Sequence record: NC_018854.1 | Reading direction: 5' to 3' (one strand) | Source: Escherichia phage ECBP1 | DNA: 64,000 nt | Part shown: positions 2,651 to 47,300 of the stretch, piece after piece | Numbering within the stretch: position 1 is the stretch's first letter | How the letters are laid out: the number at the start of each line of letters is the position of its first letter | Position numbers and translations under genes: made by a program | The notes under the pieces: generated by a model | The model's input: only the letters and a program-made list of their open reading frames with translations | Told to the model about the DNA's origin: nothing | Database searches by the model: none

Positions 2651-2959
2651 TTGAATGAAATTGTTTGTATACTTCCTCAATCAGCTAAGATAGCTGACAG
2701 GAATATCCGTATCCACTTACCCTTTCCATTAAGTAATCCATTCACTCGTAATGAAAGAACCACAGTAGAAGATGTAGAGGTAGCTTATGAAGCTTACCTC
2801 CGTAATCGTCTTATTAGTGGGGACAAACTAATTACAGCAGAGATGGAAAGGATTGCATCCTTTGTAACAGATAGTACAGGCAAGCCTGTTGGCTTAATTG
2901 GTACAGAGTCTGATGTTAACGTTATTCGTAAAATATTAATGGAGGCATTAAATGGCTAA
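2651..2959 (+). CDS. hypothetical protein, DUF4326-like paralog lacking the Cys/His motif (TTG start)
   Basis: SNPF...VEVAYEAYLRNRL resembles GNPF...VIAKYKVWLQEQI of ORF 4159-4539. Confidence 0.4.
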   Translation: MNEIVCILPQSAKIADRNIRIHLPFPLSNPFTRNERTTVEDVEVAYEAYLRNRLISGDKLITAEMERIASFVTDSTGKPVGLIGTESDVNVIRKILMEALNG

Positions 2960-3182
2960 ATATAAGGTAATACGCTTTGCAGATAATGAACGTGGTATTG
3001 GTGCAGAAGTAGAGAAAAAAACATTCTTTGGAACCAGTACATGGGTAAAAGTTAGTACACATGGACACAGTGAGTGCTTCGATAAATGGGTTAATAAAGA
3101 AACCGGTGTATCCGGTTATGCTGATACTACCCAATCAGAGATTAATGACTTCTATACTGCCAATCACATTACTAAGGAATAA
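2952..3182 (+). CDS. hypothetical protein
   Basis: 76-aa ORF; start overlaps upstream stop. Confidence 0.4.
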   Translation: MAKYKVIRFADNERGIGAEVEKKTFFGTSTWVKVSTHGHSECFDKWVNKETGVSGYADTTQSEINDFYTANHITKE

Positions 3183-31390: not shown

Positions 31391-32194
31391 ATGTCATTGT
31401 TCAGTAATCTGAAAGAAAAAACCAAAAACGTTGAAGCTGCTAAAGACTCTCTAGGTGGTGGTGGCTTCGGTGCAAAAGAAACCGATATCTACACTGGTAC
31501 TGTAAAAGTAGCTTACGTAGGCAAAGCTGATTCTGGTGCAGACTGGATGCAGTTAATTATTGAAGACCTGAAAAACTCTGATGGCGTGCCTGCTGGCGAG
31601 TTCCGTGCTCAGGTGTACTTCACTTCTGGTAATGCTAAAGGCAACAAGCCGACTTACGAGAAAAATGGTAAAGAGTACTTCCTGCCTGGCTACACTGTCA
31701 TTAACGACATGATGCTGATGGCTACTGGTACTGAACTGCCTGAAGCAGACTTCGAAGAGAAGATTGTTAAAGTCTACGACTACGACGCTAAAGCAGAAGT
31801 TAATAAATCTGTCATGGTTCCAGTTGACCTGGTAGGCCAGACTGTTACCTTCGCTCTGGAAAAAGTTCTGGAAAACAAGCAGGTTAAAGGCGACAACGGT
31901 TATGTAGACTCTGACGAAACTCGTGAAGTAAACGAGATTCAGAAAGTGTTTCACCCGGAACTGCTGGTCACAGTCGTCGAGGCTCAGGAAGCAGAGAAGG
32001 CTGAAAAAGAACTAACCCCAGAACTGGCTGTATTCTATGCAGCATGGCTGGAAAAGAACAAAGGCAAAACTCGTGACAAGACTAAGAGTTCTGCTGGTGG
32101 TAATGGTAAAGGTGGCTTGCCTCCTAAACCAGGTGCAGGTGCTGGCACGGGTACTGCTCCTGCTGGTGGTAAATCACTGTTTGGTAAACGTTAA
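31391..32194 (+). CDS. single-stranded DNA-binding protein (by synteny and size)
   Basis: 267 aa with Gly-rich flexible C-terminal tail; position matches N4 SSB as recalled. Confidence 0.4.
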   Translation: MSLFSNLKEKTKNVEAAKDSLGGGGFGAKETDIYTGTVKVAYVGKADSGADWMQLIIEDLKNSDGVPAGEFRAQVYFTSGNAKGNKPTYEKNGKEYFLPGYTVINDMMLMATGTELPEADFEEKIVKVYDYDAKAEVNKSVMVPVDLVGQTVTFALEKVLENKQVKGDNGYVDSDETREVNEIQKVFHPELLVTVVEAQEAEKAEKELTPELAVFYAAWLEKNKGKTRDKTKSSAGGNGKGGLPPKPGAGAGTGTAPAGGKSLFGKR

Positions 32195-32748
32195 TGAAAA
32201 TCCCAATTGTCGGTGCAGACATTAGTCTCCGCAATTGGGGTTTAGCTCGTGGGATGCTGGACATTGAGTCCGGCGTCTTCGAGCAGGTCGAACTTAAACT
32301 GGTTCAAACTGAAGTTGACCACAACAAACAAGTTCGAACCAACTCCAAAGATATACAAGCCGCTCACGATTTGTTTCTTGGTTGTGAGGAATGGTTACGG
32401 TCTGCTAAAGCAGTATTCGTAGAAGTACCAGTAGGCTCTCAGTCTGCTAACGGTATGAAATCCTATGGCGTATGCGTAGGATTAATAGGTGCATTTCGTG
32501 CATTGGGTTGTCCAATCTTTGAAGTATCCCCAATTGAAAACAAACTTGCACTGGTCGGTGATAAAACTGCATCTAAGGACACGATGATTCGTGCTGCTCA
32601 TGCCATCTATCCTGAAGCCAACTGGCTCACAGATAAGAAGGGCAAACTTCTGAATAAGAATGAGCACTTAGCTGATGCAATCGGTGCAATCCATGCTGGT
32701 GTAAATCTCCCAGCTTTCCAAAACCTCCTTAATTTAATAAAGGCATAA
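32194..32748 (+). CDS. RuvC-like Holliday junction resolvase
   Basis: N-terminal MKIPIVGADISLRNWGLA resembles the RuvC-family start. Confidence 0.4.
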   Translation: MKIPIVGADISLRNWGLARGMLDIESGVFEQVELKLVQTEVDHNKQVRTNSKDIQAAHDLFLGCEEWLRSAKAVFVEVPVGSQSANGMKSYGVCVGLIGAFRALGCPIFEVSPIENKLALVGDKTASKDTMIRAAHAIYPEANWLTDKKGKLLNKNEHLADAIGAIHAGVNLPAFQNLLNLIKA

Positions 32749-32749
32749 C

Positions 32750-33190
32750 ATGCAAATCATTTTGAACCAGTCCGAAGTAGAAGCTGCTGTACAGGCTTAT
32801 GTCGATGATCAAATCAATCTTGCTGGTGACATCAATATTGTCATCAATGCAGACGGTACAGCTTCCGTTGGTATCAACGAAGAGGTTCATGAAGATACTC
32901 CACCCGTGGGAGTAGAGAAGAAAACTCGTCGTTCTCGTAAGAACCCACAGGAAGCTAAACATCGTCCGGTAGAACCAGAGCCGGAAGAAGTAGTTGAAGA
33001 GGTAAAGGTAGAAGAAACCCAGACCTCTACTGGTGGTCAGAACGAGAGTTCTACGCCGGAACCTGAAGAAGAAGCAGTATCTGAACCAGAAGCACAAGAA
33101 GAAGTTGTGCAGGAAGAGGCTAAGGCTGAAGAACCAGCAGAGAAACCTGCTACTAAGCCTTCACTGTTCGCTGGCCTTAAACGTAGTTAA
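32750..33190 (+). CDS. acidic low-complexity protein
   Basis: Ordered N-terminal 45 aa followed by an E/P-rich tail (PEPEEVVEEVKVEE...). Confidence 0.5.
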   Translation: MQIILNQSEVEAAVQAYVDDQINLAGDINIVINADGTASVGINEEVHEDTPPVGVEKKTRRSRKNPQEAKHRPVEPEPEEVVEEVKVEETQTSTGGQNESSTPEPEEEAVSEPEAQEEVVQEEAKAEEPAEKPATKPSLFAGLKRS

Positions 33191-33592: not shown

Positions 33593-34010
33593 TATCGTGA
33601 AGGGTTCTGTTAGAATCCTTTGAGATAGGAACTCCTATCATAACCTTTCTTATCTTAATCTTTGCCGTATGGCACTGACGCTAGGGTTTATGCCCATCCG
33701 TCAGGTAGACTATTTTAAGAATGGGTTATCACAGAAAATGTAAAGCAACATTCGGGTTAATCAATGGCCTCTCCCTATAGGGGCCATTTCTGAATGATAG
33801 GCTATATCCCAAAGGTTAGTATCTTTGGGATAAGGCTTCAGATCCCTTATCAAACTAACCTCTCAATGTTGAGCATTTTAATCACATAAGCCCCTATATG
33901 GGCTGGGTTAAATGTCGGATAGCATAGCTACCTACAGCATCGAATTGTTAGGTCTTACATGCAACATAGGGTATAAAGGGAGGACTCGTCCCCTCCCTCC
34001 TATTATAATG

Positions 34011-34080
34011 GTCGAGGTAGCACGTAGGCATGTGCAGATGGTCGCTACTTCTCTCGCTGGTTCGAATCCAGCCCCCGACC
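34011..34080 (+). other. tRNA-like element (T-arm and acceptor present; no canonical anticodon arm)
   Basis: T-arm gctgg-ttcgaat-ccagc; 6 of 7 acceptor pairs; D-arm-like gcac-gtaggcat-gtgc; preceded by TATAAT. Confidence 0.3.
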
Positions 34081-34371
34081 TATTGACATCCTATCAATGA
34101 GTACATTAAGCTAACGTGCGGAGGTTTACACTATAGCTGGTGTAGGTGGAGAAGACGGCAGGGTAGCTACCTGTGCTTAGTGTACTCTTTGATAGTTTTC
34201 GTAAGCGATTATGCGGTTTTTTAGAAACGAACCAATAACATAAATGCAAACGATGATGTTGTTCTGATGGCAGCCTAATAAGCCAAGCGTCAGTCGGGAG
34301 TGAGTCGTCCTGATTATCAAACGACCATGGAGTGTCCTCGTCCGTGTATTAGAAACGGGGAGTTAATCAAT

Positions 34372-34450
34372 GGTGTGTGATAGCTCAAATAGGTAGAGCG
34401 TGAGGCTACAGTGCTGAATGGTTTGTGGGTTCGATTCCCACCCATGCCTA
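34372..34450 (+). other. tRNA-like element (D-arm and T-arm present; anticodon arm not foldable)
   Basis: D-arm tagctcaaataggtagagc; T-arm gtggg-ttcgatt-cccac; acceptor 6 of 7 with wrong spacing. Confidence 0.3.
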
Positions 34451-34516
34451 CAGTCCAGACGATATCTGAGTGACTATAAAAACAGATGGAGCCAGGTGGA
34501 ATCCCTGGCAATTAAT

Positions 34517-34582
34517 TCCGGTGTAGGTACTAGTGTCGTGCACGGCATAAGTGTTCTGGTTCGAGTCCAGACGCCGGAACCA
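34517..34582 (+). other. tRNA-like minihelix (acceptor + T-arm + encoded CCA; body too short)
   Basis: Acceptor tccggtg / cgccgga; T-arm tctgg-ttcgagt-ccaga; CCA encoded; only 31 nt between acceptor and T-arm. Confidence 0.3.
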
Positions 34583-34584
34583 AT

Positions 34585-34708
34585 TATCAGTTGCACGAGA
34601 TGGCTTGATATGTTCAAGTTTGGACTAAGTGTGACACCGCTAGATTGGAGAGCTGCTGCGGTAAGCTATAGACTCCAACCGGGGGTTCGAATCCCTCACT
34701 GATAACCA
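34585..34708 (+). other. tRNA-like element, about 121 nt with encoded CCA (too long for a canonical tRNA)
   Basis: Perfect 7-bp acceptor tatcagt / actgata; T-arm ggggg-ttcgaat-ccctc; CCA encoded. Confidence 0.3.
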
Positions 34709-35153
34709 ATTCAAAGTAGCATTGCACTAATCCATCCCGGAGTTCAAAGGCCAAACATGGAGCAGTGCTACTTTGAATTAGAAAGATTATGGGGGTAAGT
34801 CGTAACCATACGACGGCGTAAGTACCAGATGAGACTTCTGGACGCCCCTACCAGATTTGGGGTGTAACAGTTAAATCCAGTTGCCGGAAGTGCTATTCTA
34901 GATACGCTGCCAATGTGTGAACGGTAAGGCTGTACAGGACTCGGACTCCCGCCTCAAACCAAAGTCGCCAGGTACTTATGGCAAACGGGTAGTAACGAAC
35001 TAGTCATTCGTCAAACGCCCACCCTATTATGAGTCAGCAAGAACGCCTTCACTTAAACTTAAACAATATAAGCTTAACGCAATAATTATGTAGGGGTATG
35101 TAAGGATTGCGAAGAAGGAGCCAGTTAAAGTCTGGCATGACTCACTCATTTAT

Positions 35154-35227
35154 GCCCACTTAGCTTAGACGGGGAAAGCAACCGACTAATAATCGGAAGG
35201 TCACTGGTTCAAATCCAGTAGTGGGTA
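35154..35227 (+). tRNA. tRNA, canonical 74-nt cloverleaf; anticodon reads AAU (Ile) by standard numbering, unusual A34
   Basis: Acceptor gcccact / agtgggt; D-arm gctt-agacgggga-aagc; anticodon arm accga-ctaataa-tcgga; T-arm actgg-ttcaaat-ccagt. Confidence 0.6.
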
Positions 35228-35454
35228 CTTATTAATAGAGAACATAGTCCTGATTGCATTGCACTCTAAAGACAATGCCGGTGAGACAGTCCGGCACTCT
35301 AATTATTGAAAACATACCTAACGGTGTGAGTATGAGCAGACTATAATGCTCAATTACAGTTAACTATTATCGGACTATCAATCCTGTTTGCTGGTACAAG
35401 CACCGGTGGTAATAGTTAACTGGCCTAGCCTCGTTAGCTGCGTTAAAGCTACTA

Positions 35455-35484
35455 AGTCCCTCTTCGGAGGGACTTTTTTATTTG
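35455..35484 (+). terminator. intrinsic terminator ending the tRNA island
   Basis: agtccctc-ttcg-gagggact followed by ttttttattt. Confidence 0.65.
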
Positions 35485-35531
35485 AGTATTGATGAACGCA
35501 ATCATGCTTAAGTACAAATTCAAACCACTCT

Positions 35532-35924
35532 ATGAGGCTAATAATGGCAACAGTAAGTAAAGAAGCAATCGAAGCTAAGATTAAGAGCGTTTACTATTTT
35601 AATGGTGCTGATGCAGTGAAATCTGCATTCGTTGATCCTTCTGCACTCCCGGCAGATGATTTGGCTAACCTGGGTCTGGTAACCTATTGTGTTATCATTC
35701 TGGAAAACAATTTTAAAGTTGAAGGTGTATCTGCTTGCGTAGACCCAACTATCTATGATGAGCAGTTAGGTCGCCAGTATGCATATGAAAATGCATTCAA
35801 TAAGATTTGGGAATTAGAGGGCTACCTACTACGTCAGGCACTGCATGAGAAGGAAGAGACTGCTAAAGCTTTGGCTTCCTTTGCAGAAAACAATACCTGT
35901 GATGGTGGTGGTTGTACAATTTGA
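35532..35924 (+). CDS. hypothetical 130-aa protein (possibly the N4 gp49 family, by position and size)
   Basis: Last-but-one plus-strand gene before the vRNAP; family assignment from memory only. Confidence 0.45.
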   Translation: MRLIMATVSKEAIEAKIKSVYYFNGADAVKSAFVDPSALPADDLANLGLVTYCVIILENNFKVEGVSACVDPTIYDEQLGRQYAYENAFNKIWELEGYLLRQALHEKEETAKALASFAENNTCDGGGCTI

Positions 35925-36043
35925 TTCAAAGGTGTATGGTAGTTTTTACCGAAAGGTACTGAACTACCCGACAAAGTAGTAAGGCTCATGAAGCCAAAAC
36001 AAAACAAGCCCTCCTAGTGAGGGCTTTCTCATTTGAGGTAGTT

Positions 36044-36535
36044 ATGTCAGAAGAAATTAAAGTCCATTTCACCAACTACATTGGAACCAAGTGTGTAAAT
36101 GGTTTTCCGATGAGCAAAGAAACATACTGCAAACTTCGTGGTTGGGATGTACCAGCAGATGAAGACCCGCTAGAAGAAGGCTACTTAGTCGAGTATCCAG
36201 ACTCTAAGTCCAACCATCCCCAATTCCGTGGCTATATTAGCTGGTCACCTAAAGCTGCATTCGAAGCTGCATACCGTGACGTAGAAAAAGGTTGTACCTT
36301 TGGTCATGCAGTAGAGCTTCTCAAATCAGGCTTTAGAATGACCCGTAAAGGTTGGAACGGAAAAGGAATGTATATCACCTTAGTATCTGGTGAAAATTGG
36401 GCCATGGATAAACATGAAAATACCGTTTGTGAGAAACGGGATTGGCTGGGTATTAAAACCGTTGATAACCAGTTTATGCCATGGGTTCCATCTCAATCAG
36501 ATGTATTAGCAGAAGATTGGGTGTTAGCTCAGTAA
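36044..36535 (+). CDS. DUF2829 (Tad2-like) protein with about 90-aa N-terminal extension
   Basis: C-terminal half GHAVELLKSGFRMTRKGWNGKGMYITLV...FMPWVPSQSDVLAEDWVLAQ matches the recalled DUF2829 pattern; ATG start chosen (track GTG start lies inside a hairpin). Confidence 0.5.
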   Translation: MSEEIKVHFTNYIGTKCVNGFPMSKETYCKLRGWDVPADEDPLEEGYLVEYPDSKSNHPQFRGYISWSPKAAFEAAYRDVEKGCTFGHAVELLKSGFRMTRKGWNGKGMYITLVSGENWAMDKHENTVCEKRDWLGIKTVDNQFMPWVPSQSDVLAEDWVLAQ

Positions 36536-36542
36536 AAATAAA

Positions 36543-36571
36543 AGCCCCTCATTAGAGGGGCTTTTTCATTT
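36543..36571. terminator. bidirectional intrinsic terminator between the converging plus and minus blocks
   Basis: agcccctc-atta-gaggggct with an A-tract upstream and T-tract downstream. Confidence 0.65.
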
Positions 36572-39500
36572 AGTTAGTAAGGTTGAGCCAAGGGTTCAGG
36601 TTGTGGGCACGTAAGCCTTGACCGAAACCGAAGGAGTAACCGAGATTTCCCTGTGCAGCAATACTAAAGATGTTGTCCTGAATAGGCAGACCAACGTTAC
36701 CAAACATGGTAGGGGTTGGAGCCAACATAGCCATAGCAGCATGGACTGGGTTATTACGAATCATGGACACTGCAACTTTTGCAGAACGAATCTTAAAGTT
36801 ATAGAACCACATCAGACCAACACTTTCCATATACCCACGGAATCGACCAGGCAGACGGTCATAGTTAATGAACTCTTCCGTTACACGCCCCAGTGCTTCT
36901 TCACGAGTCTTACCTTTACGCTGAGTCAGTTCATCATAGATGATTGCTTTAGCAATAAAGTCAGAGTACTCAACCGTCTTCTGAATACCCTGGAAGAGAG
37001 CAGTATCCTTAGTGATAAGTGCATAGCGACCTGCGTTACGAACAGACTTAGGCAGCTTATCAGCCAGCTTTTCCATGTATTCGTGGAGTTTACCTTCAGT
37101 AATCAGGATGTCATCACGACCAATACCAGCATCTGCAATTGAAGAGAACTCACCAGCTTCCAACAGAGGCCAGATACTCAAACGTTTATGGCTATCAGAG
37201 ATGGACTGAATCTCAGCCTTGAGTTTACGAATCTGGTTCGGGTTAGTAGCTGCACGTAATTCTGCTTCTGCATCTACCTGACGCAGACGAGATTTCAGGT
37301 ACTGGTTAATCTCAGCAGTCTTCTGTGAAATGCTCTTAGCAATGTTCTTAACCGGTACACCACGAGCAACCATCTGATAAAGGTTAGCCAGGAAGTTAAC
37401 AGCAGGTACGACTACTGACTTAACCACAATCAGAGTCTTAGCTTCTTTAACTAAGTTCTGAACCAGGTTCTCACCACCCATTACATACTTATAGGCACGG
37501 TTGCCAAAGACACCCAGCATAGCTTTCTTGAAGGTATCCAGTGTTTCTGGTGACCAACGGGAATTACCAGACCAGGCATCACCTACAGAAGCTGCACGAT
37601 AACCCAGAGCATCGTTGAGCATGTCACGACGTACCCATAATTCACCCGGACCAAACAAACTTTCTGCTTTCTGACGGGTTTCACTGTTCATCAGCTTAAG
37701 TGCATCGGCAGTTACTGGGTCCAGTTTAGAACCAAGAAGGTTAACGTACTGGGACTTATTAGAAGCAGACATCTTAATGTCGTTCTCATACATGCTATGC
37801 AGGTTTTCAATCAGCATATCGTTGAATCGCTGAGCCTTAGCTTCTTCCACCTGACGACCACGCCATACACCGATTGCACGAGCAAGATGGTTCTCACCTT
37901 CAATGTGCTTCAGCATGTTAGGGTCAATGGATTGCTCATAAGCAACCACATTACCATTGGCATCATATACAGGCAGCAGTGGTTCATTACCACGTTCACC
38001 ACGAGCCAGTGCTTTAGTGATACGGTCTACGGAAGGCTTGTCAGTGATACGACCAGCTACCATGGTTCCCATAGTAAAGCCCGTACCGAGATCTACACCA
38101 CCAGCAGTATTACGAACGTTCTGTAAGATACCTTGCGAGAAAGGAGCCTGTGCCTGTACTGGTGCAAAGTAGTAGCTACGTGCTGGTCCACGATTAGCAG
38201 AGCTACCCTGATAAGTACCAAGACGTACATAGGATTTCTCAATCAAATCAGCAAACTGACTATCTTCAGCAACAATCAGGTTAACACCCTGCTTGTTCTC
38301 GCTAGGGATATACCCTTTGTACTGGTTCAAGGTTGCACGACTATCAGACTTAGCTTTAGCCATTTCATCTTTACGCTGACCAACCAGATAAGAAGTAGCA
38401 AAGTCCATGCCTTCAATTTCTGTCTGAGCCAGTGAAGATAACATCTCACGGTCAGTCTTATTCATTGCTTCCAGTGCATACAAAGTAATCAGTTTATCCA
38501 ACTGAGCTACATCTACAACAGAACGTGTAGTCTTACGTTCACCCAGTAAACGAGAAATTGCAGTAGCATTACGTAGCAGGTTGTTACCAACCGTACCTTT
38601 AATCATGTACTGAGCCAGTTGCTTAGATTTACGATTAATCAGAGGCCAGTTTCGTCCAGCTTGTTTCTGCAAATCTGCTTCCAGTTTATTAACCTCACGG
38701 TCAACAATCTTTTGGTCAGTCAGCAAGTCACGGATTTCATCCAGAGACATAGTGTCACGCAGAACAGCTAAGTCAGTTTTACCCATACCAGTATGCATTG
38801 CTTTCCACTCTTCATTAGTCAGCTTACGGCTGAACTTAGATGCGATAGTGGTAGGCAAGTGTTCACGGAACTGTTGACGGTCAGCCTGTACCTGTGCACG
38901 TACTGCCTTAATCAAATCATATACAGAAGCATTGCTCTTAGTACGTCCGATTATGTCATTAACCAGGTCATGGAAAGGTTGCCATACTTTACCCTGGTTC
39001 ATTGCAGCCATAACACCTTCGGCTACGATTGCACCATTCTTCTCTGTAGCAATAGCAGCTACCAGTTGTGCAGCATGAACAGCACCTTTGACCAATGGAT
39101 TCTTGGTATTAGCTGCAATTTCACGAGCACCTTCTAAAGCACGGGTAGACAATGCATCAATAGAGTCCACCAAATACTGGTTAGCACGGTCGATAGCATT
39201 ACCGGTAGGAGTAGCAACGGAATCATAGAAGGATTCTGCGTTAAGACTGGTCTGCATGATTGTCTGAGCTAATGCATCCATACCTTCCTGTACGTTAGTG
39301 GCTTTAGTATCACCTGCTACACGAGCGTTCAGACTAGCCATTGCAGCAGTACCGATGTTAGTCAGCATTGCATCAACAGTATTGCCGGATTTCTTATCTG
39401 CTTTCATGACAGGAATATCAGCCAGTACCTTACGTACCTCTTCACTTACCATTGCCAGACCAACAAAGGTAGGTAATAAGGAAGAGCGACCTTGAGCATC

Positions 39501-42500
39501 AAACTCAATGTTATTAGCACCCATGATGGTATCGAACTTCTGCTGTGCATAATAACGGTCAGCAGGGTTAGTACTATCCGGGTCAGCCATAAAAGCTTCA
39601 ACAGTCAGGTTCTTAGTAACATGTGTGTAGTATTCCTGTGCACGAGCCATAGCAGCTGGGTTAATAGCAGCCTCAGTAGCCAGTGCAGCAACAATGTTAG
39701 TAAAGAGGCGTTGTTCCTGCATATTCATGGTGAAGCCATGAGCCTGAACATCACGAGTTACTTTAGTTGCATTCACTACTGCATCAGAAAACTTACCTTT
39801 TCGAATTACTTGCTGTACTGGTTCTGAACCGATGTAGTCAGTAATCAGCTTATCAAAAGTCTTACCTAACTCTTCCAGACGAGTATTGTCACCATATGCT
39901 TTGTTATGGAACAGGGTAGTGTCTTTGGCCACAGCAGCAGTAGGAGCTTGTCCACGCATTACTACAGCAGAGTTAAACAGTAGGCCAGAGAACATATCAT
40001 CTGCATTAGCCGGAGCTTTCTTACGTCCAAATACCAGACGCTTGATTGCTTCATATACAGCCTGAACCATAGCTTTAAGTGCAGTGGTTTTCTTCTGCTT
40101 ACCAATCAATTCACGGTTGGTTAAGCCCCATGCCATGTACTCATTCAATGCAGCAGCTTTAGCCATTGCTGGTTCAATGAAGCCATTAGACAAATGACCA
40201 TTAATGGTATTGAGAGCATCAGCATATGCTTCACGTACTGCCGGGGGTTCATTCTTAACATCCAGAGTACGGAACTGGTTCATCAGGTCTTCAATGTTCT
40301 GGACTGCTTCATTAGGAGTGCCTTCATAGTGAGCCAGTACAGATTCAAAAGTAGAAGCATGAACCAATTCATGAACCAGAGTCTCTAAAGAAGGAGTAAC
40401 TAAATAGATGGTCTTATCATCAAAGTTAGTCCAGCCGTATGCATTACCTGCTTCAGCAGCTTCAATATCTTCCGGTGCTGGGCGAGTAATATTCTTCTCA
40501 ATAGCGTAGGCATCCAGTTGAGAAGGCGTACCATAAACAACCTTGTAGTCTTTAGCAGCAAGGGATTTCTGTACTTCTTTCAATACTGCTTGCTGTTCTG
40601 GAGACATCTCTTTAGCCAGCTTAGTGATAGCAGTATTGGACAACAGACGTACACCAGACTTCAGTACACGACCAACCTGTTCCATTGCCGGTACTTCTTT
40701 AGCTGGTTCTGCTTTAGCAGCACGTACTGCATCACGACGCTTATTTAATTCAGCATCAAACAGTTCGTTCAGCTTTGCTACTTGCTGGTCTACAGTCAGA
40801 CCTTCAAGAGAAATTTTACCGTCGTTCACATATGGAGCACCAACAGCAGCCATCTGGTCAACAGTGACTTGTACCTGGTTCATTACCTTGTGGCGAATAT
40901 CTACACCCAGAGCAATGTTACGCAGGTTACGTTCAATCTGTTCAGCACCAACACGTAACAGGTCATCAGTAGCACCTTCACGCTGGTCATATTCCAGAGC
41001 AGACTTAGCGATAGCCTGTTTGGTTTTATCAGACAGTTTGCTGAAGTCTACATTCTTCATGAACTTAGCGTAGGAGTCATAAACATTCTTGATAGGGTTA
41101 CCCTGCCAGGAAGTATATACAGCCTCATTAGCTTTACGACTTGCATCAGTAATGTCATTGATACCAATGTTCATACCATCAAAGATTTTCAGGGTATTCT
41201 TCGGAGCACCTTTCATAGTAGAAAGGGTCTGCATCATCATGCCATCACCAGTACCGATGGTCATAAATGGAATACCTGCTACACCTGCCTGTGAAGGAGC
41301 ATAGATGCTCATTGGCACACGCATACGGTCATCTAAGTTGGTAGCCAATACTTGGTTAGCAACATCAGTATTCTCACTACCAGCAATGTAGAAAGTCTGG
41401 GAACCAGTCTCAATCATTGGAGCCAATGGAGATAATGATTCCTGGATTTCATTCAATTCTTTCTGTGTTAAAAAATCACCCTTCTTCCATGTTGGGTCTT
41501 TTTCTTTTTCTGCCAGTTTCTCCTGAACACGTTGCTGGAACATGTCTTGCAGAACCAGAGATTGAATCTGGGTAGCTTTCTGCAAGTTCTCAGTAGAGTA
41601 CATCAGACCTTCACCCACGGTATTTCGGATACCAGTACGCATTGGTTCAACGAACAGATGGAGCATATTCTCCTGCAAGTTCTTCAGAGCATTACCTGAT
41701 ACAGTAAACTTCTGAGGGTCTAACTTACCAGTCAGAGCACCATCTACCTGCTGAATAGACAACTCACCTTTACGCATAACCGGAACATTACCAGTTAGTG
41801 CTTCCATAGAAGTAAGGAAAGTATCCAGCATAGCCTGAGCATCAGCCTCAGACGCAGCCTCCTTACCAAACATAGCCATAGCTGGGGAAATGCTAGGGTC
41901 AGCAGCACGGGCTTGTAGAACGTCACTGAATCGTTCATAGATGACATCAGTAATTGCACTAACCATTTTGCCTGCAATACCACGAGCACCAGAACCATAG
42001 ATGGTAATAGTCAGTGGGTTTTTAGCGATACCACGTTTCAGGTCCAGAGTACCATCTTCATTCAAATTAAAGTCTTTAATGAACAGGTCCATTAACTTCT
42101 GGAGATGGTTCATCTGGTTCATAACAGGAACGTTGTTACGGTAAGTACTACGTAATTCATTCAGTGCTTGTTGCAGACCATTAGTGGATGCTTCATACAG
42201 GTCAACGCTGTCCTCATGCGAATGATGCTCGTTCATGGTCTTACCAGCTTTACCGAAGAACAAACCACCTTTGGCAGTATTCTTAATCCAGTCTGGGGTG
42301 AACTTACCACCAGTCATTAATACCATTGCGTTGATTGGTCCGTTGGTTACACCATCAGCTTCAACGTACAGTGGGGTATTAAAGTTGGTACGGTCATCAC
42401 TGTTAAGGTAACGGGCATATTCCATCAGAGCCATAAGAGCTACGAATGATTTATCACTACCCAAAGAAGTCTTCAGAATATCCACTGCATCGGCAGGTAA

Positions 42501-45500
42501 GTGTCCAGACTTATCAAATTCAACCATCATATCAACGGCAGGTTTAAGTTTGCCTTCCAGAGCTTTAGTCAGCTCATCTGACATAACTTCACGGGACATT
42601 TTATGAACTTTGATACCCAATGCCTGAGCCAGTCCAAGCTGGAAGTCAGAGAACGTTTGACTGTTTTCATTACTTAAGTCGATGGTAGAGAAGGTTGGAA
42701 GGATTGCTTCACGAACCAGCTTACTGGATTGTGGGTTGTTCTTACCAAGCATCTGCATACGACCTACACGGGTCATGTTGTAGCCGTAGTGAATAGGTGT
42801 ATCCAGTCCATTCTCCTGTTCCTTAATTTGATTGATTACACCAAACAAGGAATCATACGCCATGGACACGGACAGGTTTTTACCTTCCAGAGACTTAGCA
42901 GTATTCACATTCAGCAATTCTGGATTAAGAGCACCAGCACCCATTAACTCCAGAATGTTGTCACAACCCAATGCTTCATAGAAATTAACCATCGGCATAT
43001 GTACACGAAACTCAGTAGCTTGTTCTGCTTTGAGAGCAGCTTTCTGTTCCGGGGTATTCTTAACAGCCGGGTTACGTAACTGAGTTTGAGCCACGGAAGG
43101 AATGTCATCACCCAGATACAATTTCTCTACTGGTTCTAAAAGGACAGTTTCCTCAATAGCAGTAGGGAATTTATTAATGGCATCGTTATCATCCAGCTTC
43201 TCAATGGTATACAGACCAACAGTCTTATTAGATTCTGGGTCAATCTCAGACACATCTAACATGGACTCTTTAACTTCACCCATCTCAATAAGGGAAGACA
43301 GAATCTCTGTAGCCATTGCCATTGGGATACCCTTGGTATACCCCAGAGGTGCATTAGGATTACGATTCAAACCCCAATAGGATTCAATCTTTTGAGCCAG
43401 TGAGTTAGTAGCTTCAACCAGGGTCTGAGCATTCTCGAAGTCAGCCAGAATACCTTCTGGTAGCAGAGATGCTTCCACACCAGTAATAGCAGCTACGTCT
43501 TTCATGTCTTTAACAGCAGCATTCTGTGTAGCAGTCAATCGCCATTGCAGACCAGCAAGTACAGCAGTTTCTAATAGCTGGTCATTGAACTTAAAGGTGT
43601 CACCATCTTTCTCTACGATGTTAAGTAACTTACCACCTACCCAACGGTTAGCCTCAGTACCTTCCGCAAAACGTTTACCAACGTTCTTGTTAGCAAGGAA
43701 CTTAGCCAGACGGTCAGACAGAGTAGTCTTCAGAGTTTCACCAAACTCAAATAAGTCCTGATAACGCTTAATCACATCACTTGTGAGAGCGTTATTTTCT
43801 TTTTGAGTGAATGCTTCAAAGCGAGCAGCAGAAGACAGTGCTTTCTTAACATCAGTCAAAGGAGATTCAGAACCAATGGTACGAGACTTAGGCTCTTCTG
43901 GTAGGGAAAATGCTTTAAGGAACTGGTTTGGTGTCTTATCATTATTATAGACAGGGAACACTGTTTCCATTTCCGATAAAGGTTTACCACCAACGGTATA
44001 GTCTGCTTTCAGTTGAGCCAGTGATACTTCTTCCTTCTCAACGTTATTGGTATTACGTTCAGACGTATCTACACCAATCTGAATAAGTGCATTGTTTGCT
44101 TCAACGAAAGATTGAACAGTATTGAATTGTTCAGCAGTCAGTTTCTGATTATCAAACAGTTGCAGAGATACAAATGGTTGCTCACTACCTTTATAGAAGG
44201 TAGAGCGAATAGCACCAGTATCCAGAGACATATCACGATAACCATCATGCCCAAATACGTCGGACAAGCTGATATGGTCGCCATTAGAACCAACCACAGT
44301 ACCATCAGCAAACAACCAAGGGCTTTCTCTACGGTCACCATTCTTATTAAGAGTTTCCTGTGAAATAGTATTTTCTTTCACATAAGCATCTCTTTCAGAT
44401 TCAGTAGTAGAGACTTCTTCTGCTTTTGGACTAGTCTCTTTAGTAGGAGCAGTCTTATTTTCTACCACTGGTTTATCTTTAGGCTGTACAGTAGTGGTGT
44501 CCTCTTGCACTAGTGCAGGAGTTTCATCAACCTGATTCACTGGTTCATTAGTCTGTTGAGACTGAGTGGCATCAAGACCACCTTGACGGAACTCTTTAAC
44601 TACCTGGGCAGCTGGCTTGTTCAGACGTGAATCCAACGAGGTAACTTTCACATGAGAAACATTAAGCTCCGGGTAAGCCGTAGCAAGTGCGTTAGCAATG
44701 TCAGCTACGGTCTTAGCTTCCAGTGCTACTTGCTGGGCAAACTTAACAGACTTGGTATCGTAAGGATTGACACCGAGGCCAGTACGACTACGTACCCATT
44801 CACGGGAAGGCGAGAGAGCCTGATAATGAACAGACTTATTCTTATCCGCATTCCCCGAAATCAGATGCTCATTCAACGCTCCGACCTTATTCTGCATGTG
44901 CTGGGCGAACTTCATAAAATCGCTCAGATAAGCGGAGGCCAAATCGAAGTTACCAGAGTTATACGCAGAACGAATGCGTTTCGCATGTTGCAACGCAGAG
45001 TACTGTCCTTCATTAGAACGAGACTCATCGGTTTTAATTTGTTTACTAACAATGTCTTGAGGACGTAAGCCTAGTTCTTCTGCTTTAGCGTCGAACTCTC
45101 GTGCACCCTGTAATAAGGCAGCAGCAGATTGCAGGGCAGCACGTTGACGATTCCCCAGTGTAATCTTACCTTCACTTGCATGTTTCAGAACCATGTTCAC
45201 TGAATCTGCATCCAGCACTTCTGGAGATACATCAGCAGCCATAGCAATGTTGTTTGCTTGGGCTTGATTAGCTTCTTCAGTAGCTTTCAGCTTACCCGCT
45301 TCAGCCTGTTCCTGAATCATGGAATGGATGGCACGAAATGCACGGAGTACTTTAGGGGTATTCTGTACGTTAGCCATCAGGCCGGAGAATTGGTCTACGA
45401 TTGCAGCAGCAGGGGAATCTTGTTCCAGATTAGCCAAAGCACCCGGGTCACGGTTAATGAAGCTATCCATAGACATGATATTGTCATACATCTGGATTGC

Positions 45501-47300
45501 AGCTTCCATTTGAACGTTAGGGTCTTCGGCAGTATTAACCAAGTCAGCCATCTTCTGAATAGCTTCTACACGGTTAGTGGAACCAGAAACAGCTTCACGG
45601 ATTGCTGGGTTAGTTTGTTCCAATTCTACCGGGTCAAACTTCATTGCTTGAGTTAAGTCAGCAGCATACTGGGTAGCAGCAGCTTTCTCTTCTGGAGAAA
45701 TATCCATTGCATCCACTGCTTCCTGAACAGTTGCTTGAGCTTGTTCTGCCTGAGCAGTAGCTTCTTGTGCAGCAGCGTTAACCGTAGCATCAGATACGGG
45801 GGATGCTTGTTCATTACGCTTAGCAACTTCTTCCCCACGTTGAACCAGGATGTTAGTAATAGGAGAAGCTACTTTTGCTAGTGCCTTACCAGCCAAAGAA
45901 GCACCAGCCAGGGTAGTACGTACAGCAGGACCAACGGCAGCACCAGCAGCCTTAACAGTTGCACCAGGAGCTTGAGCAACTCCAGCAGAACCGAAGCCAT
46001 ACAATGCACCAAGACCGGTTTGTTCACCCACACCTTTAAGCAAATCACGCTTAGCATCTACATTACCTTGAATTGCCTTGTTCTGTGCAAACTGACTTGT
46101 ACCAGACTGGATACCTTCTTCTACAGTCTCACGCAGCATGTTAGAACCAGCACCAGCCAGTGAACCTACCTTAAGTGGATTAAGTTCAAACTTGGATACC
46201 AGTGGACCAGTAAGAGCAGCAACCGGAGCAGTTAAGCCAGCAGCAGTAATACCCGTTTCAGATGCAGTCTGGCGACGTGCTTCTTCAGGAGATAAACCGT
46301 CTTTAATATGCTGTTGGTATACAGGAGATTTAGCAGCCAATTCACTGAATGGCATTTCCATAATTTCATTAGCAGTCTGTTGGTATGCACCACCAGCTTC
46401 CATACCACCAATTGCTATAGCAGGTGCAGCAACACGACCAGTAGCTAATGCAGTACGTGCAGGACGTGAACCTAACTCAGCAGCTAAGGTAATGCCTTTA
46501 ACAGCTTTATCACCACCTACCATTACTTTACCGAGTGCAGATACACCACGAATCAATGGACCGCCGGTAAAGAGAGAACCAACACCCTCAGCCAGACCAT
46601 CAGTAGCAGCCATGCCATTGGACAAGGTGTTAGCAACAGAATCGTAAGCATCTCGACCAATGCGAGACAGGGAAGCAACGAGATCACTTTCTCCTTTAGC
46701 AATATCCTGCTTATAGAGTTTCTCGTTTTCCTGTGCAGATATTACGTTCTGGTTCTGTACTACATTACGACGAGCATTTAATGCATCAGACTGTAGGTTG
46801 TGTACACCTTTATTCAACCAGTCAAGACCGGAAGCAATGGTTGCCCCGGCATTATCATTGACCAAGCCTGTACCAAGAGCAGCAATGCCCCCAAGAGTAT
46901 TAGCAACACCAAGACCAACACCAGAAAGGGTATCACCAAGTGCTTCACCATATGTACGACTCTTAGTTAAATCACGACGAACAGCATTAGCTGCATTGAC
47001 ACGAGCATTGAGAATGTCCATTCCTTGCTCATTGCCATACTTGTTTATGATTTCAAGAGGAGAGGCATTAGTAAAATCTGCCTGAAAAGAACCTGGGTCA
47101 AATGCACCAGCACCTAAGTTACCAGCACGGCCTGCCTGTAATTGGTAAGCGTTCTGTGGGGTTAGTTGGAAGGGGCTTTGCCCTTGTTCAGCTTGTTTCC
47201 GAGAGGTTGCAGTAGAGACATCGACTTGCTTAGCAGTAGTGATGCTGTCTGCGAAACCTGCCAGACGGTCAAATGTTGACATAGCATGATTCCTGTTCAA
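36570..47300 (-). CDS. virion-encapsidated RNA polymerase (N4 gp50-like giant vRNAP)
   Basis: 3576 aa; T7-like RNAP motifs LYVEADGVTNGPINAM, TITIYGSGARG and KIFDGMNIG in the central region. Confidence 0.85.
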   Translation of the reverse strand: MNRNHAMSTFDRLAGFADSITTAKQVDVSTATSRKQAEQGQSPFQLTPQNAYQLQAGRAGNLGAGAFDPGSFQADFTNASPLEIINKYGNEQGMDILNARVNAANAVRRDLTKSRTYGEALGDTLSGVGLGVANTLGGIAALGTGLVNDNAGATIASGLDWLNKGVHNLQSDALNARRNVVQNQNVISAQENEKLYKQDIAKGESDLVASLSRIGRDAYDSVANTLSNGMAATDGLAEGVGSLFTGGPLIRGVSALGKVMVGGDKAVKGITLAAELGSRPARTALATGRVAAPAIAIGGMEAGGAYQQTANEIMEMPFSELAAKSPVYQQHIKDGLSPEEARRQTASETGITAAGLTAPVAALTGPLVSKFELNPLKVGSLAGAGSNMLRETVEEGIQSGTSQFAQNKAIQGNVDAKRDLLKGVGEQTGLGALYGFGSAGVAQAPGATVKAAGAAVGPAVRTTLAGASLAGKALAKVASPITNILVQRGEEVAKRNEQASPVSDATVNAAAQEATAQAEQAQATVQEAVDAMDISPEEKAAATQYAADLTQAMKFDPVELEQTNPAIREAVSGSTNRVEAIQKMADLVNTAEDPNVQMEAAIQMYDNIMSMDSFINRDPGALANLEQDSPAAAIVDQFSGLMANVQNTPKVLRAFRAIHSMIQEQAEAGKLKATEEANQAQANNIAMAADVSPEVLDADSVNMVLKHASEGKITLGNRQRAALQSAAALLQGAREFDAKAEELGLRPQDIVSKQIKTDESRSNEGQYSALQHAKRIRSAYNSGNFDLASAYLSDFMKFAQHMQNKVGALNEHLISGNADKNKSVHYQALSPSREWVRSRTGLGVNPYDTKSVKFAQQVALEAKTVADIANALATAYPELNVSHVKVTSLDSRLNKPAAQVVKEFRQGGLDATQSQQTNEPVNQVDETPALVQEDTTTVQPKDKPVVENKTAPTKETSPKAEEVSTTESERDAYVKENTISQETLNKNGDRRESPWLFADGTVVGSNGDHISLSDVFGHDGYRDMSLDTGAIRSTFYKGSEQPFVSLQLFDNQKLTAEQFNTVQSFVEANNALIQIGVDTSERNTNNVEKEEVSLAQLKADYTVGGKPLSEMETVFPVYNNDKTPNQFLKAFSLPEEPKSRTIGSESPLTDVKKALSSAARFEAFTQKENNALTSDVIKRYQDLFEFGETLKTTLSDRLAKFLANKNVGKRFAEGTEANRWVGGKLLNIVEKDGDTFKFNDQLLETAVLAGLQWRLTATQNAAVKDMKDVAAITGVEASLLPEGILADFENAQTLVEATNSLAQKIESYWGLNRNPNAPLGYTKGIPMAMATEILSSLIEMGEVKESMLDVSEIDPESNKTVGLYTIEKLDDNDAINKFPTAIEETVLLEPVEKLYLGDDIPSVAQTQLRNPAVKNTPEQKAALKAEQATEFRVHMPMVNFYEALGCDNILELMGAGALNPELLNVNTAKSLEGKNLSVSMAYDSLFGVINQIKEQENGLDTPIHYGYNMTRVGRMQMLGKNNPQSSKLVREAILPTFSTIDLSNENSQTFSDFQLGLAQALGIKVHKMSREVMSDELTKALEGKLKPAVDMMVEFDKSGHLPADAVDILKTSLGSDKSFVALMALMEYARYLNSDDRTNFNTPLYVEADGVTNGPINAMVLMTGGKFTPDWIKNTAKGGLFFGKAGKTMNEHHSHEDSVDLYEASTNGLQQALNELRSTYRNNVPVMNQMNHLQKLMDLFIKDFNLNEDGTLDLKRGIAKNPLTITIYGSGARGIAGKMVSAITDVIYERFSDVLQARAADPSISPAMAMFGKEAASEADAQAMLDTFLTSMEALTGNVPVMRKGELSIQQVDGALTGKLDPQKFTVSGNALKNLQENMLHLFVEPMRTGIRNTVGEGLMYSTENLQKATQIQSLVLQDMFQQRVQEKLAEKEKDPTWKKGDFLTQKELNEIQESLSPLAPMIETGSQTFYIAGSENTDVANQVLATNLDDRMRVPMSIYAPSQAGVAGIPFMTIGTGDGMMMQTLSTMKGAPKNTLKIFDGMNIGINDITDASRKANEAVYTSWQGNPIKNVYDSYAKFMKNVDFSKLSDKTKQAIAKSALEYDQREGATDDLLRVGAEQIERNLRNIALGVDIRHKVMNQVQVTVDQMAAVGAPYVNDGKISLEGLTVDQQVAKLNELFDAELNKRRDAVRAAKAEPAKEVPAMEQVGRVLKSGVRLLSNTAITKLAKEMSPEQQAVLKEVQKSLAAKDYKVVYGTPSQLDAYAIEKNITRPAPEDIEAAEAGNAYGWTNFDDKTIYLVTPSLETLVHELVHASTFESVLAHYEGTPNEAVQNIEDLMNQFRTLDVKNEPPAVREAYADALNTINGHLSNGFIEPAMAKAAALNEYMAWGLTNRELIGKQKKTTALKAMVQAVYEAIKRLVFGRKKAPANADDMFSGLLFNSAVVMRGQAPTAAVAKDTTLFHNKAYGDNTRLEELGKTFDKLITDYIGSEPVQQVIRKGKFSDAVVNATKVTRDVQAHGFTMNMQEQRLFTNIVAALATEAAINPAAMARAQEYYTHVTKNLTVEAFMADPDSTNPADRYYAQQKFDTIMGANNIEFDAQGRSSLLPTFVGLAMVSEEVRKVLADIPVMKADKKSGNTVDAMLTNIGTAAMASLNARVAGDTKATNVQEGMDALAQTIMQTSLNAESFYDSVATPTGNAIDRANQYLVDSIDALSTRALEGAREIAANTKNPLVKGAVHAAQLVAAIATEKNGAIVAEGVMAAMNQGKVWQPFHDLVNDIIGRTKSNASVYDLIKAVRAQVQADRQQFREHLPTTIASKFSRKLTNEEWKAMHTGMGKTDLAVLRDTMSLDEIRDLLTDQKIVDREVNKLEADLQKQAGRNWPLINRKSKQLAQYMIKGTVGNNLLRNATAISRLLGERKTTRSVVDVAQLDKLITLYALEAMNKTDREMLSSLAQTEIEGMDFATSYLVGQRKDEMAKAKSDSRATLNQYKGYIPSENKQGVNLIVAEDSQFADLIEKSYVRLGTYQGSSANRGPARSYYFAPVQAQAPFSQGILQNVRNTAGGVDLGTGFTMGTMVAGRITDKPSVDRITKALARGERGNEPLLPVYDANGNVVAYEQSIDPNMLKHIEGENHLARAIGVWRGRQVEEAKAQRFNDMLIENLHSMYENDIKMSASNKSQYVNLLGSKLDPVTADALKLMNSETRQKAESLFGPGELWVRRDMLNDALGYRAASVGDAWSGNSRWSPETLDTFKKAMLGVFGNRAYKYVMGGENLVQNLVKEAKTLIVVKSVVVPAVNFLANLYQMVARGVPVKNIAKSISQKTAEINQYLKSRLRQVDAEAELRAATNPNQIRKLKAEIQSISDSHKRLSIWPLLEAGEFSSIADAGIGRDDILITEGKLHEYMEKLADKLPKSVRNAGRYALITKDTALFQGIQKTVEYSDFIAKAIIYDELTQRKGKTREEALGRVTEEFINYDRLPGRFRGYMESVGLMWFYNFKIRSAKVAVSMIRNNPVHAAMAMLAPTPTMFGNVGLPIQDNIFSIAAQGNLGYSFGFGQGLRAHNLNPWLNLTN

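Follow-up and report, generated by a model that had tools for sequence, protein, structure and literature searches.

The gene at positions 35544..35924 (+ strand) of the analysed window, a stretch of 64,000 nucleotides of phage DNA, encodes a member of Pfam family PF13876 (Phage_gp49_66) which has the Acb4 fold and is the ortholog of phage N4 gp48, a gene found at the same genome position. We consider it highly probable that the product is an Acb4-family sponge, so that a real but ordinary counter-defence gene, here called acb4, has been identified. The window represents a Bp4/PD38-like, and thus N4-like, genome of the genus Gamaleyavirus. The 1.4-kb region surrounding the gene shares 99.4% identity with PD38 and Bp4, two N4-like Escherichia phages of the same genus (Schitoviridae). 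The Acb4 family, this exact protein (as a listed homolog), the activity of the N4 ortholog and the genomic hotspot in which the gene resides were already known.

A first-pass annotation had described an open reading frame at 35532-35924 (+). This ORF exists and the peptide quoted from it is indeed encoded there, but the product had been given as 130 residues starting at 35532. Judged from sequence, the most likely start is the ATG at 35544, resulting in a protein of 126 aa (MATVSK...). The assignment is based on three points. Full-length homologs nearly all have 121-126 aa (106 clusters, obtained in a search of 5.8 billion proteins) and, when aligned, start with M-[AT]-T-V, i.e. at the methionine encoded by ATG 35544. 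A Shine-Dalgarno sequence, GAGG (35534-35537), is placed 6 nt 5′ of this ATG. Finally, one relative (L005) has ACG in place of the ATG at 35532 while GAGG and the downstream ATG are retained. The 5′ leader of acb4 extends from 35486 to 35543 (+), and its last 50 nt or so are shared by Gamaleyavirus relatives, as seen in a comparison of upstream regions. The protein had also been said to end in CDGGGC, while its actual end is CDGGGCTI. The impression that certain aromatic and cysteine positions look conserved was confirmed: C49, N55, G61, G76, A84, W89, E92, G93, and Y94 show no variation among 33 diverse homologs.

Membership in the family named after N4 gp49 had been guessed correctly from size and position. 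In the profile search suggested for this guess, PF13876 matched with 89.8 bits (E = 1.7e-25) over profile positions 2-82 of 82, the curated cut-off being 27 bits, and the domain is present in all 106 database homologs. The protein also matches PHROG 322 (E = 4.7e-45), which is listed as "unknown function", and NCBIfam contains no model that matches the acb4 product or the neighbouring protein. Homology to a housekeeping phage protein with a structural or replicative role, which had been named as contrary evidence, was looked for and was not found. When the single sequence was compared to PDB by phmmer, only marginal matches were obtained (Acb4, E = 0.96), and a match to peptide deformylase (E = 0.47) was judged spurious. 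For this reason a profile was needed, and with a profile of 33 homologs the sole significant match in PDB is Acb4 (9E4W, E = 9.6e-7).

The AlphaFold2 monomer model (pLDDT 87.1) has strands at residues 13-20, 46-53, and 58-64 and a helix at 73-114. It reproduces the monomer fold of Acb4 in 9E4W, which consists of a three-stranded antiparallel sheet, N-terminal helices and a long C-terminal helical region. When the model was compared to PDB by Foldseek, the first 13 matches were all chains of 9E4W, with a probability of 1.00, target-normalised TM scores of 0.63-0.72 and modest E-values of about 2e-3; the best match after these chains has E = 0.24.

The first-pass annotation had considered the function of the family as not known. 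However, PF13876 has been published as the Acb4 anti-CBASS sponge family and has been known under this name since December 2024 (Chang et al., bioRxiv 10.1101/2024.12.30.630793). In that study, Acb4 of phage SPO1 was found to be a tetrameric sponge which defeats CBASS and which has four 3′3′-cGAMP molecules bound in the structure (9E4W). All eight of the other purified PF13876 homologs bound 3′3′-cGAMP, those from phages of Gram-negative hosts bound 3′3′-c-di-AMP (3′3′-cAA) as well, and the AlphaFold3 models were tetrameric for all eight homologs examined. The 126-aa protein described here is identical to UniProt X2KY41 from phage Bp4, which is included in the homolog table (Table S3) of the same paper. 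As N4-like phages were absent from the set of phages used in its lysate screen, this screen says nothing either way on the N4-like clade.

For the N4-like clade, evidence is available from N4 itself. N4 gp48 shows 47% sequence identity to the window protein from end to end, including the C-terminal tail. It has been named Acb4 and was reported to be both necessary and sufficient to activate the Panoptes system (Nature 2025, PMC12657230). Knockdown of gp48 restored plating of N4 on Panoptes, and expression of gp48 alone caused Panoptes toxicity, which is what a cyclic-nucleotide sponge would be expected to do (PMC12657230). The genome position is also equivalent: in both phages the gene follows a non-coding/tRNA stretch and is located directly 5′ of a DUF2829 gene and of the convergent virion RNA polymerase gene. 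In the N4 records (EF056009, NC_008720), the gene at the acb4 position is gp48 while its DUF2829 neighbour is gp49. The family name is thus misleading: the PF13876 ortholog is gp48, whereas gp49 represents the DUF2829/Tad2-like protein. Compared to the N4 records (N4 33632-34485), the number in the Pfam label "N4 Gp49" is too high by one. The proteins from N4 and from the window differ in the insert at residues 21-44 and at four pocket-equivalent positions (L45/T42, K58/T55, Y71/F68, D72/N69, window protein first).

By analogy to SPO1 Acb4, to its eight homologs, to N4 Acb4 and to the Acb4-Sequestin protein of Pseudomonas phage Ab09, the protein is expected to form a homotetramer with four deep pockets at the subunit interfaces. 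During infection, these pockets would bind and sequester the cyclic dinucleotides made by host CD-NTases, namely 3′3′-cGAMP and, as in the homologs from phages of Gram-negative hosts, c-di-AMP. With the signals soaked up, CBASS effectors would stay off and the phage could complete its cycle. The strategy itself is shared with the sponges Acb2, Tad1, and Tad2, which likewise act as small homo-oligomers and trap immune nucleotide signals in pockets between their subunits, while their folds are unrelated to that of Acb4.

With SPO1 Acb4 (9E4W) the window protein shares the Pfam family, the fold and a conserved core motif, but sequence identity is only 17-20%. In addition, it carries a 24-aa insert between β1 and β2 and a C-terminal extension of 26 aa in which two cysteines are conserved. 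According to the residue map, stacking or hydrophobic ligand contacts are kept (F48→F57, F62→Y71, L89→L96) and two further contacts show conservative changes (N63→D, I66→L). The other SPO1 contacts are replaced (K36→L45, E49→K58, V56→C65, Y57→V66, T70→Y79, K81→E90), so that the base-specific and phosphate contacts made by K36, E49, Y57, T70, and K81 are not conserved. Because the ligand contacts have changed, specificity cannot be transferred from SPO1 Acb4. Pocket conservation was not reported in the founding study for its ligand-binding homologs. The variable insert (aa 21-44; 35604..35675, +), defined from the alignment and from the secondary structure of the model, is missing in the short family members as seen in the alignment consensus, and the guanine-reading K36 of SPO1 aligns to L45 (35676-35678), which is just one residue past the insert.

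It is therefore conceivable, although we consider it rather unlikely, that this Acb4-fold sponge has a main ligand other than 3′3′-cGAMP, such as c-di-AMP isomers, cUA, cyclic trinucleotides or an ADP-ribose-derived signal, and that it counteracts another CBASS type or another signalling system. Such a shift would fit the replacement of the guanine-reading K36 and E49 and of the phosphate contacts Y57, T70, and K81, as well as a variable insert whose last residue directly precedes the K36-aligned position. Among characterised relatives, homologs from phages of Gram-negative hosts bind 3′3′-cAA in addition, N4 Acb4 acts on a 2′3′-c-di-AMP pathway (PMC12657230), and the Ab09 Acb4-Sequestin protein binds cGAMP weakly. 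However, 8 of 8 diverse homologs in the founding study bound 3′3′-cGAMP, and the aromatic stacking residue is conserved in the window protein.

As the Acb4 fold is derived from that of double-stranded-RNA-binding domains (dsRBD), the protein might instead bind dsRNA and act on phage or host RNA. The Acb4 monomer does resemble dsRBD proteins, and some phage dsRBD-like proteins retain the basic "KR motif" needed for dsRNA; in 11 of 26 aligned tail-bearing sequences, a lysine at position 75 leads to a K-G-R/K pattern. The motif itself, [KR]-x(1,3)-[KR] at the start of the second helix, is however absent from the window protein, which has L75-G76-R77-Q78 and thus a single basic residue. With PF13876 membership alongside proven sponges and an N4 ortholog which is sponge-like in vivo (PMC12657230), dsRNA binding is considered very improbable, and sequestration of nucleotide signals remains the preferred reading. 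Position 75 corresponds to I66 in the adenine pocket of SPO1 Acb4.

The C-terminal extension (aa 101-126; 35844..35921, +) is specific for a clade and ends with the C-x4-C motif CDGGGCTI (35898-35921). N4 gp48 ends with CEGGGCKI, so that the consensus of the two is C(E/D)GGGC(K/T)I, while that of the tails in general is C-x(2-4)-C-x-[IL]. The motif was found in 95 of the 106 homolog clusters, and both cysteines are retained in 95 of the 96 clusters with a tail, at identities as low as about 46%. In contrast, only 35 of 1,331 published family members carry the tail. The tail is present in 99 records of the phage collection, and all but one marginal case are phages of Enterobacterales of about 70-76 kb, named or sized like N4-like phages, with Escherichia, Pectobacterium, Klebsiella, Enterobacter, Kosakonia, Shigella, and Erwinia as hosts. 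The tail alone has no match in Pfam and is modelled by AlphaFold2 at low confidence (pLDDT 47-58). Chang et al. mention that some homologs have "additional extensions", and the tail does not have a role in the published mechanism.

We tentatively raise the idea, which we regard as improbable, that the C-x4-C-x-I tail, found so far only in Acb4 from enterobacterial N4-like phages, is a functional add-on which possibly confers a ligand spectrum or a second activity that differs from SPO1 Acb4. Such a clade-specific change might result from the tail acting together with the variable β1-β2 insert and with the replacement of base-reading residues. One possibility is that the tail cysteines form a metal or disulfide clasp between protomers and so stabilise or gate the tetramer.

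Downstream of acb4 is a gene for a protein of 163 aa (36044..36535, +), the ortholog of N4 gp49. It consists of an N-terminal domain (aa 1-84) and a Tad2-like/DUF2829 domain (aa 85-163). As it has both a profile match to Tad2/DUF2829 (PF11195) and the Tad2 fold, it is a Tad2-like (DUF2829) anti-Thoeris protein. For residues 1-83, no Pfam family was found at E-values up to 10. Sequestin (PF21825) was considered for the N-terminal domain and was rejected, since there is no profile match and since the model consists mostly of beta strands while Sequestin is described as alpha-helical. The next gene is that for the virion RNA polymerase (3,576 aa; 36570..47300, - strand), which is supported by the ORF and by the annotation of Bp4 and N4 and which represents the right-hand boundary of the hotspot. 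In N4-like phages, a hotspot for anti-signalling genes has been described in the interval flanked by the primase-polymerase/SSB genes and by that for the virion RNA polymerase; it may contain Acb4, Tad2, Tad3, Sequestin, and Bes1/2, and RuvC-like Bes1 orthologs are found in most of these hotspots (10.64898/2026.06.04.730250, 2026). As acb4 and the Tad2-like gene reside in this published hotspot, the term "accessory cassette" used in the first-pass annotation is apt. Two ORFs that are gp46- and gp47-like (32194-33190, +), located after SSB and before the tRNA region, have no match in Pfam.

Tad2-Acb4 fusion proteins are common, and one of them blocks both Thoeris and CBASS. In Pasteurella phage Pm86, the same sponge domains are joined in an Acb4-Tad2 fusion, whereas here Acb4 and Tad2 are encoded by separate adjacent genes and the Tad2 domain is instead fused to the uncharacterised N-terminal domain. 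In Pseudomonas phage Ab09, the Acb4-Sequestin protein (gp59) combines sponge domains against two defences, and its gene lies in the corresponding hotspot of this N4-like phage. The Ab09 protein bound cGAMP weakly, and its single deletion did not result in a CBASS phenotype, owing to redundancy. The adjacent Tad2-like protein described here is expected to sequester the TIR-derived ADP-ribose signals of Thoeris in a likewise manner, so that the two genes together would provide cover against two signalling defences.

The homologs in phages 24-32N (Gp52, PV933157) and Mimir124 (PQ310662) are annotated as anti-CRISPR proteins, a function which, if correct, would replace that of a sponge. Apart from these labels, it might be invoked that the Tad2 domain of the neighbour shares its fold with AcrIIA7. 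However, the three papers found to name PF13876 do not link it to CRISPR inhibition, no solved anti-CRISPR structure was matched by sequence or by fold (PDB searches, Foldseek), and PHROG 322 is assigned "unknown function". An anti-CRISPR function is thus extremely improbable. The label was most likely spread from the DUF2829/AcrIIA7-like neighbour or by an automated pipeline, while Acb4 remains the assignment that we prefer.

The suggested check of whether acb4 always co-occurs with DUF2829 genes gave a negative answer. A Tad2 domain is found within 5 kb in 10 of 80 Acb4 loci from IMG/VR, which is a lower bound at the sensitivity of tblastn. N4-like markers (virion RNA polymerase, SSB, gp46) are in the vicinity of 7 of these 80 loci, which shows that the Acb4 family is not tied to the N4-like hotspot. 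Relatives of Acb4 were found in 894 records of the phage collection, compared to 394 for relatives of the neighbour. Even tail-bearing homologs with 67-70% identity occur at other loci without a DUF2829 partner, as in Pectobacterium phage CB1 (Cbunavirus) and in Enterobacter phage SABI. The CB1 homolog, gp89 (70648-71040), is encoded between the portal gene and gp67-like/terminase genes, beside a gene for a MazG-like pyrophosphatase, and the SABI homolog is located after a tRNA cluster. The placement of CB1 gp89 in a different island indicates that, within Schitoviridae, acb4 is mobile as a single-gene cassette. For the window, signs of recent foreign insertion were not detected: a compositional anomaly was not found (GC content 0.40-0.44 at the acb4 region, 0.42-0.48 nearby), nor were meaningful direct repeats that flank acb4 and the Tad2-like gene.

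The hotspot shows gene turnover between relatives. In phage 24-32N, acb4 is directly followed by an inserted 82-aa ORF and the Tad2 gene by another one, and the relatives E20 and KP8 have further small ORFs in the hotspot. These extra ORFs (about 42-97 aa) were located at 1930-2178 and 2822-3055 in the 24-32N locus (L083), at 2559-3289 in L084, and at 2872-3027 and 3530-3991 in L087. Being placed around acb4 and the Tad2-like gene, they are candidates for additional counter-defence genes.

The two genes had been described as a single unit bounded by terminators. Both bounding hairpins are present, but the notion of a single unit is only partly correct, due to an internal terminator-like hairpin (36006-36026), overlooked in the first-pass annotation, and because the pairing of the two genes is not obligate. 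The upstream terminator-like hairpin (35454..35485, +) has a stem at 35454-35475 (AAGTCCCTC-TTCG-GAGGGACTT) followed by a T-run. It is specific for the Bp4/PD38 lineage: in PhAPEC5-like relatives this position is occupied by unrelated sequence, while the leader of about 50 nt is kept. The second, bidirectional terminator-like hairpin (36540..36565) separates the Tad2-like gene from the convergent gene for the virion RNA polymerase and is conserved in N4 and in PhAPEC5-like relatives. In the 4-kb region, 13 terminator-like sites were counted, compared to 3.6 +/- 2.0 in shuffled sequences. A scan for sigma-70 promoters did not reveal an excess (6 found, 6.7 expected), and we therefore do not claim a promoter for the cassette.

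Between acb4 and the Tad2-like gene is a structured spacer of 119 nt (35925..36043, +) with three hairpins: GGTAGTT..TACC-GAAA-GGTA..AACTACC, which has a GNRA loop; GGCT-CATGA-AGCC; and the terminator-like AAGCCCTC-CTAGT-GAGGGCTT at 36006-36026, which is followed by a T-rich tail. The sequence GAGG at 36032-36035 serves the Tad2-like gene. This spacer, with its three hairpins and a length of 118-119 nt, is conserved across Gamaleyavirus, while in N4 a spacer is lacking and gp48 overlaps gp49 by one base. It may represent an RNA processing or stability element. Upstream of acb4, the 1.9-kb stretch at about 33.6-35.5 kb does not contain a convincing protein gene. ARAGORN reported three tRNA genes at 34010-35228 (+), with the unusual anticodons Ala-cgc, Cys-aca, and Ile-aat, two of which are annotated in the Bp4 record. 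A perfect 13-nt inverted repeat (35357-35369/35410-35422; CAGTTAACTATTA / TAATAGTTAACTG), with 40 nt between its arms, is found just 5′ of the acb4 terminator hairpin.

The assignment of acb4 does not introduce anything conceptually new. It does, however, provide a mechanism for a gene which in public records of Bp4-like phages is still called "hypothetical" or, wrongly, "anti-CRISPR". With this assignment, a candidate therapeutic phage would carry adjacent sponges against CBASS and Thoeris, which would affect its host range. This protection is predicted to come at a cost, as removal of cyclic nucleotides is expected to set off the decoy-signal system Panoptes in the same way as N4 Acb4 does, and an Acb4 sponge thus predicts sensitivity of the phage to Panoptes-type decoy systems.
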